64,000 bases of DNA. Origin: Anaerolineae bacterium (GTDB taxonomy: Bacteria; Chloroflexota; Anaerolineae; Epilineales; JAHCIE01). Shown piece after piece: positions 38,235 through 45,399 of the stretch. Position numbers and translations under genes: made by a program. Every line of letters begins with the position of its first letter. The first letter of the stretch is position 1. The notes beneath the pieces were generated by a model that did not search any database, was not told where the DNA came from, and was given only the letters and a program-made list of their open reading frames with translations. The stretch is taken from assembly GCA_046328505.1 (NCBI GenBank), contig JAXLWL010000005.1, positions 475,666 to 539,665 of the forward strand. The letters are read 5' to 3'.

Positions 38235-38270
38235 AGTATACCAGGCGGATTTTCAGACATTGTGAAGAGC
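38235..38270 (-). promoter_or_regulatory. Conserved promoter module, copy 1: 23-nt element GCTCTTCACAATGTCTGAAAATC, 4 nt, TGG-TATACT (extended -10)
   Basis: Same module as at 41623..41658 and 45364..45399. It ends about 80 nt upstream of the start at 38152. Confidence 0.5.
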
Positions 38271-38351
38271 CGATTGGGAGAATGTGAGGATGGCGGGCAA
38301 GAAAAACTGCCGACCTGTGTCGGCAGTCTGGAGGTCCGGAGCTGATCGAGG

Positions 38352-39608
38352 TTACTCGTAGCGCAGCGCCTCGATCGGGTTGAGGCCGGCGGCGCGGTTG
38401 GCGGGGTACGCCCCGAAGAATAGGCCGACGCCGACGGAGAAGAGCGTCGCCAGCAGCACCGCCTGGTAGCCGATGACCGGGTTGAGCGAGATGTTGCTGA
38501 TCGACAGCCCGCCAATCAGATGACCGACGACAATCGCCAGTACGACCCCTATCAAGCCACCGAGCACGCTCAACACGGTCGCCTCGACGAGGAACTGGGC
38601 CAGGATGTCGTTCTTGCGCGCGCCCACCGCCTTGCGCAACCCGATCTCGCGCGTGCGCTCGGTCACGCTGACCAGCATGATGTTCATGATACCGATGCCG
38701 CCCACCAGCAGGGAGATGCCCGCGATCGCGCCCAGGAAGAGGGTGAAGATCTGGGTGGTAGTCGTGGCCGTCTCGAGAATGTCCTGCTGGCTGGTGACCG
38801 AGAAGTCGTCGTCACCCGTCAGGTGGTGGCGCTCGCGCAGAATCTCGCTCACCTGCTGGATCGCGGCCTCATTCTGTGAGGAGTCCACAATCTCGACGTT
38901 GATGACGGAGACGTTGTTCGAGCCGCGGAACTGCCCGCCGCCGGCCAGTCTTGCCTGGGCTGTCGTGATGGGGACGATCACCTGGTCATCCACGCTGCCG
39001 AAGCCCGTGCCGCCCTTCGCCTCCAGCACGCCGATGACACGGAAGGACACGTTATTGATGCGGATAGACTGACCAACGGGGTCGGCATCCGCGAACAGAG
39101 TCTTGGCGACATTGGCGCCGAGGACCGCGACGGTAGACTTCGTCGTGACTTGCGCGGCGTCGATGAAGTCGCCGCTTGCCAGCTTCATGATGCGGACGGT
39201 CAGGTACTCCGGCGTCGCGCCCGTAATTCGGGTGTTGGTGTTGTTACCCTGGTAGACCACCTGGCCGAAGCTATCGTACTCAGGCGCGACGGCAGCCACG
39301 GCGGGCGCCGCGCCGGCCTGGGCGAGGGCCTGGGCGTCGGCATAGGTCAGCGTCGCCGCCGAGCCTTGCGCCGTGCGAACGCCGGCCTGCTGGGTCGAGC
39401 CGGGACGAATGTAGAGCAGGTTGGTGCCGTTGGACTCAATCTGCGCCTGGATGCTCGCCTGAGCGCCCTGGCCAATGCCAAGCATGACGATGACCGCCGC
39501 CACACCGATGATGATTCCCAGCATCGTCAGCGCGGCCCGAAGTTTGTTGGCCTTCAAGCCGTCGAGTGCGATTTGCAGTGATTCGAAAATGCTCATTGTC
39601 GTCTCCAT
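38352..39608 (-). CDS. ABC transporter permease, FtsX/MacB-like (no fused ATPase)
   Basis: N-terminal TM (LRAALTMLGIIIGVAAVIVMLGIG) is followed by a large periplasmic domain and a C-terminal FtsX-type 3-TM bundle (ISLLVGGIGIMNIMLVSVTERTREIGLRKAVGA...). Confidence 0.85.
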   Translation of the reverse strand: METTMSIFESLQIALDGLKANKLRAALTMLGIIIGVAAVIVMLGIGQGAQASIQAQIESNGTNLLYIRPGSTQQAGVRTAQGSAATLTYADAQALAQAGAAPAVAAVAPEYDSFGQVVYQGNNTNTRITGATPEYLTVRIMKLASGDFIDAAQVTTKSTVAVLGANVAKTLFADADPVGQSIRINNVSFRVIGVLEAKGGTGFGSVDDQVIVPITTAQARLAGGGQFRGSNNVSVINVEIVDSSQNEAAIQQVSEILRERHHLTGDDDFSVTSQQDILETATTTTQIFTLFLGAIAGISLLVGGIGIMNIMLVSVTERTREIGLRKAVGARKNDILAQFLVEATVLSVLGGLIGVVLAIVVGHLIGGLSISNISLNPVIGYQAVLLATLFSVGVGLFFGAYPANRAAGLNPIEALRYE

Positions 39609-39737
39609 ATTCTGATCACACTCTCGATTTCAATGAGGTGCCTGTTCATAATGTCTCCTATGCCGCTCCTCACCCGGGCTCCCTCTCCCTCGCCGAGACT
39701 CTCGGTGAAGGAGAGGGAAGGCCTGTTCGGGCGCCGC

Positions 39738-44389: not shown

Positions 44390-44521
44390 GCTGTGAGTGG
44401 TCCCGCGTTGAGTCAAAGTGTCTGGTAACATAAGTATAGTCCCGAATACGCTGGCCGTGTACCACGACACCCTCTCTCCCACGCGGGGAGAGAGGGATGT
44501 CATCACGTGGAAAGGACTCTT

Positions 44522-45301
44522 CTACGCGCCCGGCGTCGCGGTCGGCGCGACCGGGGTCTGCTGCGGGCCGCCGGGGAAGCCATGCCCGCCGGGGCCACCA
44601 GGGCCGCCATCGAAGTGGCCCGGGCCGCGCAGCATGTCGTCCAGACTCTGGCTCGCGGCCTCCTGATCGATCTGCTGCTTGATCTGGGTCGCCTGGTCAG
44701 AGGTCAGGCGGCCTGCCGTCACCGCTGCATCCACCTCGGCCTTCTTGGCGGCGACGATGGCCGCCTTAACGGTGTCCGCGCTTACGCCCTTGGACTGGGC
44801 AATGGCGCTCAGGGTCTGGCCCGACTGCAGGGCCGTTTGCAGGTCAGCCGTCGTCATGCCGAGAGCCTTGGCCGCTGCGTCGAACACGGCCGGGCCGCCG
44901 ATGGGGCCGCCAGGGCCGCCGGGGCCACCGCGGCCGGGGCCGCCACCATGGCCGAATGGCAGGCCCTGGCCAGGCTGCCACTGGTCAACGCGGGAGTTAA
45001 TCTGAGTCGCCTGATCCTGAGTGATGTGCCCGGCCTGCAGCTCGCTAGCCACGACATCCTTGGCCGCCGCCTTGACCGCCGTGGTGAGCTGGTCCACCGA
45101 AATGCCCAGCTTGCCGGCGAGCGCCGTCCAGAACGACTGGTCCAGGGTGTTGATCGGGGGCTGGCCGGTCGGAGCGGTGGGGGCGGTTGGGGTAGGCGAC
45201 TGCGCGTTCGCCACGCCAACCGCGCGGCCCACGCCGAACAACCCGATCACCAGCGCCAGCGCCGCAACGCCGGCCAAAACTACGTTCTTAACTCGCTTCA
45301 T
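44522..45301 (-). CDS. Secreted LTxxQ-motif protein, CpxP/Spy/ZraP-like periplasmic stress protein (tentative), with an internal duplication and Gly/Pro/His-rich linkers
   Basis: GGAGA RBS 7 nt upstream. Signal peptide MKRVKNVVLAGVAALALVIGLFGVGRAVGVANA. Two helical repeats each carry an [LI]T[SQ]DQATQI motif (ITQDQATQI; LTSDQATQIKQQ). They are followed by GGPGRGGPGGPGGP and GGPGGPGGHGFPGGP tracts. It is the first gene of the RR-HK operon. Confidence 0.5.
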   Translation of the reverse strand: MKRVKNVVLAGVAALALVIGLFGVGRAVGVANAQSPTPTAPTAPTGQPPINTLDQSFWTALAGKLGISVDQLTTAVKAAAKDVVASELQAGHITQDQATQINSRVDQWQPGQGLPFGHGGGPGRGGPGGPGGPIGGPAVFDAAAKALGMTTADLQTALQSGQTLSAIAQSKGVSADTVKAAIVAAKKAEVDAAVTAGRLTSDQATQIKQQIDQEAASQSLDDMLRGPGHFDGGPGGPGGHGFPGGPQQTPVAPTATPGA

Positions 45302-45363
45302 CTTCTTTCTCCTTGTACGCTTCGTGTGCTATCGTCGTGCGCTTCACCGCCCGACTTGCCCCT

Positions 45364-45399
45364 AGTGTAGCAAGGAGATTTTCAGACATTGTGAAGAAC
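45364..45399 (-). promoter_or_regulatory. Conserved promoter module, copy 3: GTTCTTCACAATGTCTGAAAATC, 4 nt, TGC-TACACT
   Basis: Read from the sequence. It ends about 62 nt upstream of the ATG at 45301. Confidence 0.5.

Follow-up and report, generated by a model that had tools for sequence, protein, structure and literature searches.

In a 64,000-nucleotide (nt) stretch of the genome of an Anaerolineae bacterium (Chloroflexota; contig JAXLWL010000005.1, positions 475,666 to 539,665; hereafter the window), three minus-strand operons are preceded by the same 56-bp promoter module, which consists of four tandem 11-bp units, 6 nt ending in TGn and a TAnnnT hexamer. One of these operons encodes a response regulator of the OmpR/PhoB subfamily and a sensor histidine kinase, and the module accompanies orthologues of this pair in other genomes. 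Judging from the arrangement and conservation of these sequences, we consider it likely that the three blocks are activator-dependent promoters of a regulon that is bound by the local OmpR/PhoB-type regulator and positively autoregulated.

Three copies of a promoter block in the window

The first-pass annotation of this DNA had described a 36-nt block upstream of three operons, composed of a 23-nt element, exactly 4 nt and an extended −10. A pattern scan bore out the three copies: the 23-nt element (G[TC]TCTT[CA]ACAATGTCTGAAAAT[CG]) occurs exactly three times in the 64 kb, always on the minus strand, and allowing up to three mismatches added no further copy. The chance expectation is 0, and none of 100 dinucleotide-preserving shuffles contained a match; a 15-nt core of the element had the same outcome in the window as the full element. 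After each copy there are exactly 4 nt, then TGG or TGC, and then a TAnnnT hexamer, the end of which lies 82, 76 and 62 nt from the start codons at 38152, 41546 and 45301 for the promoters designated P1, P2 and P3, respectively (Table 1). When the three upstream regions were aligned, conservation was limited to the block and the flanks were unrelated. The conserved block is nevertheless longer than had been described, since the 23-nt element is only the downstream half (units U3 and U4) of the 56-bp module and two further 11-bp units (U1 and U2) lie upstream of it. Scored with a position-weight matrix built from related sites, the three modules in the window reached 62–70 bits, compared with −32 for the next best window position.

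A scan of the window for canonical sigma-70 promoters found no −35/−10 promoter at P1, P2 or P3, and therefore no −35 hexamer at a usable distance. This null result fits a promoter without a −35 element, although it falls short of proof. Together with the direct repeats, it agrees with the earlier proposal that the 23-nt element takes the place of a canonical −35, in the position where OmpR/PhoB-type activators would bind. The hexamer TT(A/C)ACA is present in U3 of all sites (for example, at 41654-41649 (−) in the window) and matches TTGACA at five of six positions, but with 20 nt between it and the −10 hexamer, it is not in register for sigma-70.

The module consists of four phased 11-bp units

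A metagenome search with a looser pattern, in which U3, U4 and TAnnnT were fixed and U1, U2 and the spacer TCCTGC were left outside the pattern, returned 88 loci, ∼50 of which were GC-rich, clearly related and Chloroflexota-like. Another ∼35 matches were AT-rich and had neither U1-U2 nor TCCTGC, and these were discarded as chance. An alignment of 51 unique sites revealed four phased 11-bp units, each starting with TC(C/T), with the consensus sequences TCCACATAnTC (U1), TCCaCATCnCT (U2), TCTTAACAATn (U3) and TCTGAAgAtnt (U4), followed by the spacer TCCTGC and the −10 consensus TAnnaT. Written with degenerate letters, U3 is TCTTmACAATn and U4 is TCTGAArAynn. P1, P2 and P3 of the window fit this four-unit scheme.

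An exact 19-mer (CTTMACAATGTCTGAAAAT) was also compared with 185,579 reference genomes. Of the 20 matches, five were genuine, all of them in Chloroflexota and with TAnnnT at the same spacing, and the remaining 15 were chance matches or coding sequence, including one conserved Acidobacteriota gene. Because only five of the 20 matches were real, we conclude that an exact-match scan greatly underestimates the family. The copies in Pyrinomonadaceae and other Acidobacteriota (L002, L007, L008, L010 and L011) lie inside conserved coding sequence; since their flanks are conserved too, they represent one homologous gene that is unrelated to the promoter module.

Two lineages depart from the common form. 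In a divergent lineage (L024, an 11-Mb genome), the units read TCTACATAttT, cCCCTAcCggA, TCTAAACACTT and TCTAAATATCT, followed by 6 nt and TATTAT, and the last two units make the 11-bp direct repeat obvious to the eye. This variant occurs twice, once before a YceI-regulator-kinase operon and once before a DUF2680 gene, which in this genome lies outside the regulator-kinase operon, behind a module of its own. At 8200-8330 of the L024 locus, the variant module directly follows the apparent 3′ end of a tRNA gene and a hairpin terminator. In Oscillochloris (L023, 8107-8162), we recognized a U3-U4 box alone, with a score of 18.7 bits and no recognisable U1-U2; thus, one-box and two-box promoters both occur in the family.

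At many of the sites from L026 to L115, a further sequence, nnCCATCAnA, was observed 5–12 nt past TAnnnT and is followed by an A/C-rich, G-poor leader in front of differing gene classes. It might mark the point where transcription begins, with the first transcribed bases conserved, or be a site for another protein, and it is absent from P1, P2 and P3.

The module accompanies one regulator-kinase pair across genomes

Nine distinct loci were fetched through kinase orthology alone (L022, L023, L024, L025, L026/27 and L116-L119). At all nine, the operon with the regulator and kinase genes has the module directly in front of it, with TAnnnT at the same spacing. The distance from the end of U3-U4 to TAnnnT is 6 nt in every site, including these nine loci, which were not selected for spacing. 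The leading genes of the nine operons vary and encode DUF2680; DUF4405 plus a small protein with two transmembrane (TM) segments; YceI; Haem_bd; or an HHH-domain protein. In most Chloroflexota, the partner of the regulator-kinase pair is DUF4405 plus the small two-TM protein (∼100 amino acids, aa), rather than the DUF2680 protein found in the window.

Each of the three promoters in the window also has orthologous promoters in other genomes, in which the module is kept and the flanks have diverged. Such promoters were identified for P3 in L014, L016, L019, L022 and L001 and for P1 in L016 and L022, and a P2-type module precedes HlyD-ABC-FtsX operons in L086/L102, L031 and L065. No other regulator gene recurs beside the module among the downstream and neighbouring genes surveyed. 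These data establish how the module is built, that it is conserved and that it is linked to the regulator-kinase pair. The nine loci and the 11-bp repeats at the −35 position support the view, put forward in the first-pass annotation, that the module would define a regulon of the local two-component system and that one copy would be autoregulatory. All of the computational checks suggested there came out in favour of this view.

The locus L026 contains two more modules on the plus strand, at 5031 and 5831 (48 and 65 bits), 2–3 kb upstream of the module of its regulator-kinase operon. One lies before a DUF6789 gene and the other before a small open reading frame (ORF), and thus regulon members cluster locally in other genomes too.

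The regulator in the window has both a receiver domain (Pfam Response_reg, E 1.3e-31) and a winged-helix domain (Trans_reg_C, E 4.9e-27), each past its cutoff. Its orthologues are 75–89% identical and YERTIDVHIRNLR is invariant in the C-terminal DNA-binding domain, which fits a binding site conserved across genera. Close homologues of the kinase number in the thousands in Chloroflexota: more than 6000 homologues were found at E≤1e-40, and the best 120 are 61–87% identical and include sequences from Roseiflexaceae, Oscillochloris and Kouleothrix. The ∼190 N-terminal residues of the kinase before HAMP matched no family, and we read them as two putative TM segments flanking an extracytoplasmic region.

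The module precedes recurring classes of genes

In 579 kb of related GC-rich DNA, we found 61 unique module sites that scored >30 bits. The sites are not scattered at random: among the 55 with enough downstream sequence, 49 have the start of a co-directional ORF within 300 nt (median 76 nt), and for the remaining six, a co-directional ORF or annotated gene lies further downstream or the start was missed by the filter. Unrelated contigs share the classes of genes that follow the module. These are regulator-kinase operons (∼15 distinct), HlyD-ABC ATPase-FtsX pumps (P2 of the window, L031, L065 and L086/L102), pairs of a Thr/Ala/Pro-rich protein and a ferric-reductase-like protein (the window, L016 and L022), DUF4405 or cytochrome b561-like proteins, YceI, Haem_bd, secreted intradiol-dioxygenase-like proteins, DUF3500 proteins with a His-rich NicO-like transporter, and DedA-family proteins. 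No phosphate-acquisition genes (pst, phoA and similar) were present among these classes. The content of the regulon makes a stress of the envelope, a redox stress or a metal-related one the probable signal, and "envelope stress", the name that had been suggested for the regulon, can serve only as a plausible label.

A model for activation at the module

An 11-bp direct-repeat array at the −35 position is a signature of the OmpR/PhoB family, and the module is therefore likely a site for a regulator of that family. Structural work provides several precedents. PhoB effector domains bind direct repeats head-to-tail (PMC4415409). Cryo-electron microscopy of Mycobacterium tuberculosis PhoP showed PHO boxes occupied by a single dimer or by two or three dimers in tandem (2PhoP-, 4PhoP- and 6PhoP-TAC), and in the 4PhoP-TAC complex, tandem dimers occupy two PHO boxes with the downstream box at −35, where it displaces the sigma R4 contact; similar tandem assemblies have been noted for PmrA-TAC (a dimer) and GlnR-TAC (a tetramer) (PMC11825685).

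For the module, we infer which protein binds and in what stoichiometry, whether it activates or represses, where the transcript starts and what the signal is. In the proposed mechanism, the phosphorylated regulator would bind head-to-tail to U1-U4 as two tandem dimers. If the transcript is assumed to start ∼7 nt past TAnnnT, U1-U4 would span about −62 to −19, so that the downstream dimer on U3-U4 would occupy the place of the −35 hexamer. Via sigma region 4 and the beta flap, this dimer could then bring RNA polymerase to the extended −10 (TGnTAnnnT), in the manner of PhoB, M. tuberculosis PhoP, GlnR and PmrA. P3 would drive the regulator's own operon (DUF2680 protein, regulator, kinase and SnoaL-like gene) and the circuit would therefore be positively autoregulated, while P2 (a MacA/MacB-type efflux pump) and P1 (a pair of membrane proteins) would be placed under the same signal, presumably sensed by the extracytoplasmic domain of the kinase.

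Several considerations weigh against this model. The conservation of U3, U4 and TAnnnT in the metagenome set is partly circular, because those sites were selected by the pattern. Independent evidence is limited to U1, U2 and the spacer, which were absent from the search pattern, and to the nine protein-fetched loci. Related organisms contributed many of the metagenome sites, which are hence non-independent, and the four units are not universal, as the Oscillochloris site illustrates. A −35 element is not essential to extended −10 promoters, and in GC-rich bacteria a clear one is often missing; its absence is therefore no proof of activator dependence, and the same site could mediate repression. 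Other OmpR-family paralogues of the genome are also possible binders.

Repression is the most probable of the alternatives. It invokes the same binder and the same site with the opposite sign: the regulator, at about −62 to −19, would repress a constitutive extended −10, giving negative autoregulation with derepression when the protein is unphosphorylated. The conserved TGn directly upstream of TAnnnT would suit such a promoter, given that a −35 is dispensable when the −10 is extended. Repression from PHO boxes is also within the repertoire of M. tuberculosis PhoP (PMC11825685). However, the −10 hexamers are weak (TACACT, TAGGAT, TATTCT), and the box occupies the exact activating position of PhoB and PhoP without overlapping the −10 or the start site. 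Moreover, none of the sites obtained without selection for spacing departs from the fixed distance to the −10, and such rigidity favours activation because an activator must contact RNA polymerase, whereas a steric repressor tolerates variation. For these reasons, we regard repression as unlikely.

A different factor, either an OmpR-family paralogue or an unrelated protein, might bind the module and control the regulator-kinase operon. Chloroflexota genomes encode many OmpR-type regulators, and the search with the kinase by itself produced more than 6000 homologues. Nevertheless, the module accompanies this one orthologous pair at nine of nine loci despite widely varying neighbours, and no second regulator gene recurs next to it, making a different binder quite improbable.

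High conservation immediately upstream of a fixed −10-like element could also point to an activator-independent promoter of an alternative sigma factor, made up of a −35-like and a −10-like element, and the U3 hexamer, with its five of six matches to TTGACA, might be taken as the −35-like part. At 20 nt from the −10, however, this hexamer is too far away for sigma-70-type recognition, and the L024 variant lacks a TTnACA hexamer. The conservation continues for ∼50 bp upstream of the −10 as four phased repeats, which is beyond a sigma footprint; the −10 with its TGn resembles a housekeeping promoter; and a sigma-factor gene was present in only one fetched locus (L023, ∼7.5 kb upstream of the site). 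We consider this explanation very improbable. A MerR-type promoter, which the 20-nt distance between TT(A/C)ACA and the −10 might suggest, was rejected because the repeats are direct rather than palindromic, their centre is outside the spacer and no MerR gene is nearby.

It is scarcely credible that the block is non-regulatory (a dispersed repeat, a mobile-element remnant or a structured 5′ leader RNA): near-identical sequence does occur in multiple copies within 7 kb, but it always points the same way at a set distance from the downstream genes, its orthologous positions are conserved across genera with diverged flanks, and there are no terminal repeats or transposase genes. An RNA element in particular was discarded because no Rfam family matched the three regions (two chance-level matches at E≤1 fell elsewhere) and predicted folding was no better than that of shuffled sequences (z = +1.0, +1.0 and −0.3).

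Comparison with known two-component systems

Neither the regulator nor the kinase could be placed in a named orthologous group, as all NCBIfam equivalog scores, including those for heavy-metal regulators, were below cutoff. The closest solved structures to the regulator are MtrA (2gwr, E 2.6e-50), RegX3 and BaeR (4b09). By analogy, the promoter would work like a PHO-box promoter, and the regulon content resembles that of Bae/Cpx-type envelope responses; the system belongs to none of these named systems.

The 22-bp pho box of E. coli also ends ∼6 nt before the −10 hexamer. The likeness to PhoB/PhoP PHO boxes extends to the tandem direct repeats, the OmpR/PhoB-family regulator, the two-unit boxes and the replacement of the −35 by the downstream box (PMC4415409, PMC11825685), with binding being predicted in our case, and the four-unit array is similar to the two-box "4PhoP" type of M. 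tuberculosis PhoP. In contrast, the half-site sequence differs, the regulon here has no pst or pho genes, the extracytoplasmic domain of the kinase belongs to no recognisable family, and both proteins score below the PhoBR models (regulator, TIGR02154, 228 versus a cutoff of 296; kinase, PhoR TIGR02966, 179 versus 334).

Like the system proposed here, BaeSR of E. coli, an envelope-stress system that controls the mdtABCD and acrD pumps and spy, is an autoregulated OmpR-type two-component system with an efflux pump and a small secreted protein among its targets, and many of the kinase orthologues are named BaeS by JGI automatic annotation. However, the scores are far from those of the Bae proteins (BaeR, 206 versus 380; BaeS, 245–247 versus 500–603), the pump here is of the MacAB type rather than RND, and the secreted protein is DUF2680 rather than Spy. 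The CpxRA-CpxP system offers a similar comparison. There, as here, the leading gene of the regulon, which also shows the tightest linkage, codes for a small, secreted, helical protein with two (I/L)TxxQ-like motifs, and the operon is apparently autoregulated through direct repeats with a 10–11-bp period. The regulator nevertheless scores 163 against a CpxR cutoff of 341, the secreted protein has no match to the LTXXQ/CpxP family, and the usual partner genes in Chloroflexota are those for DUF4405 and the small two-TM protein.

Although MtrA of the actinobacterial MtrAB system is the closest solved structure by sequence to the regulator, the scores (MtrA, 222 versus 300; MtrB, 192 versus 450), the lack of a gene for an LpqB-type accessory lipoprotein and an unrelated regulon content set the two systems apart. 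HssRS and HprSR are also OmpR-type two-component systems; HssRS controls a MacB/FtsX-type efflux pump (HrtAB) through a direct-repeat operator, and HprSR controls the ferric-reductase-like haem b membrane protein MsrQ. Orthology is not supported (HprR, 153 versus a cutoff of 353), no MsrP or HrtA partner genes are present here, and the analogy is one of regulon content only.

Implications for Chloroflexota

To our knowledge, hardly any experimental work has addressed gene regulation in Chloroflexota, and we found no description of this system in the literature on Chloroflexi two-component regulons, DUF4405 and DUF2680. The system looks like a widely conserved, uncharacterised Chloroflexota regulon that is mechanistically ordinary, another case of PhoB/PhoP tandem-dimer activation, and as such it does not change the understanding of two-component regulation. 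Its value lies in a precise, testable candidate operator of 44 bp, whose four 11-bp units keep a constant distance to the −10 and which goes with a single, highly conserved regulator-kinase pair, and in recurring target classes, mostly domains of unknown function, for whose annotation it provides an anchor. DUF4405, DUF2680, YceI, Haem_bd, DUF3500 and the small two-TM protein become linked to one common signal, and the module offers a simple reporter for finding that signal.

A more far-reaching and rather doubtful possibility is that the pair is the principal extracytoplasmic redox, haem or metal stress system of Chloroflexota. DUF4405, which is b-type-cytochrome-like, and its ∼100-aa two-TM partner would then act as co-sensors in a multi-component sensor, and the regulon would represent a hitherto unrecognised set of extracytoplasmic electron-transfer and efflux functions (DUF4405, YceI, Haem_bd, ferric-reductase-like, DUF3500/NicO and MacAB-type proteins) under a nearly invariant four-protomer operator.

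Gene content of the three operons

The features of the three operons are listed in Table 1. The gene contents described in the first-pass annotation were largely as we found them, except that the SnoaL-like gene downstream of the kinase had been omitted.

Table 1. Promoter modules, genes and terminator-like hairpins of the P1, P2 and P3 operons (window coordinates).
Feature	Position	Strand	Composition or basis of assignment	Score
P3 module, whole	45364..45419	-	spacer CCTTGC; TACACT 45369-45364	61.7 bits
P3 module, units	45376-45419	-	U1 45419-45409 CGCCAATCTTT; U2 45408-45398 TCCCAACAAGT; U3 45397-45387 TCTTCACAATG; U4 45386-45376 TCTGAAAATCT	
P3 23-nt element	45377-45399	-		
DUF2680 protein, secreted	44522..45301	-	first P3-operon gene; two (I/L)TxDQATQI motifs	Pfam DUF2680 E 6e-9
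Response regulator, OmpR/PhoB subfamily	43694..44389	-	receiver and winged-helix Trans_reg_C; proposed module binder	
Sensor histidine kinase	42170..43681	-	HAMP, HisKA, HATPase_c	
SnoaL-like gene	41751..42173	-	longest frame overlaps kinase stop codon by 4 nt	
Terminator-like hairpin	41690..41712	-	10-bp stem and T-rich tail; separates P3 operon from P2	
P2 module	41623..41678	-	U1 ACCGAACAATG; U2 TCGCTATCTGT; U3 TCTTAACAATG (41656-41646); U4 TCTGAAAATGC; spacer GGCTGC; TATGAT 41628-41623	63.9 bits
P2 23-nt element	41636-41658	-		
HlyD-family periplasmic adaptor (membrane fusion protein)	39738..41546	-	TIGR01730, past cutoff; P2 operon	152 bits
MacB-type permease	38352..39608	-	MacB_PCD and FtsX; P2 operon	
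Terminator-like hairpin	38302..38326	-	CTGCCGAC-ACAG-GTCGGCAG then TTTTT; between FtsX gene and P1; read from sequence, unlisted by terminator scan	
P1 module	38235..38290	-	U1 TCCTCACATTC; U2 TCCCAATCGGC; U3 TCTTCACAATG (38268-38258); U4 TCTGAAAATCC; spacer GCCTGG; TATACT 38240-38235	70.0 bits
P1 23-nt element	38248-38270	-		
Thr/Ala/Pro-rich 146-aa protein	37712..38152	-	first P1-operon gene; one N-terminal hydrophobic segment	
257-aa polytopic membrane protein	36907..37680	-	weakly ferric-reductase-like; P1 operon	

The first protein of the P3 operon had been called an LTxxQ protein. It matches Pfam DUF2680 and gave no LTXXQ or Spy match in Pfam even at E≤10, nor any CpxP, Spy or ZraP chain in the Protein Data Bank (PDB) at the same threshold, so the resemblance is at the level of the motif only. 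A link between DUF2680 and CpxP/Spy was dropped, as sequence searches of Pfam and PDB gave nothing. The SnoaL-like gene probably closes the P3 operon and is co-transcribed with the regulator and kinase genes, because its frame overlaps the kinase stop codon. The gene is missing from the orthologous loci L016 and L022.

Of the components of a MacAB-type tripartite pump, the P2 operon contains the adaptor and the permease, and the ATPase is missing: no ABC ATPase gene is adjacent to the permease gene or detectable in the 64-kb window. The operons behind the same module in L102, L031 and L065 are HlyD-ATPase-FtsX operons. Loss of the ATPase from the pump in the window is one possibility, and use of an ATPase from another locus is a second. 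Only 130 nt separate the HlyD and FtsX genes.

For the 257-aa membrane protein of the P1 operon, the label "ferric-reductase-like" rests on its orthologue. The window protein itself had no Pfam or NCBIfam match (none to PF01794 at E≤0.1), whereas the 80%-identical orthologue in L016 gave a sub-threshold match to Ferric_reduct (E 2.5e-5, 24.8 bits versus a cutoff of 28). The Thr/Ala/Pro-rich protein encoded by the first gene of this operon has orthologues in L016 and L022 behind the same module. Between the ferric-reductase-like gene and the glucose-6-phosphate dehydrogenase gene, there is a sigma-70-like match (GTGCCA-16 nt-TACAAT, 36778-36805 (−)), and the dehydrogenase gene is therefore probably outside the P1 operon.

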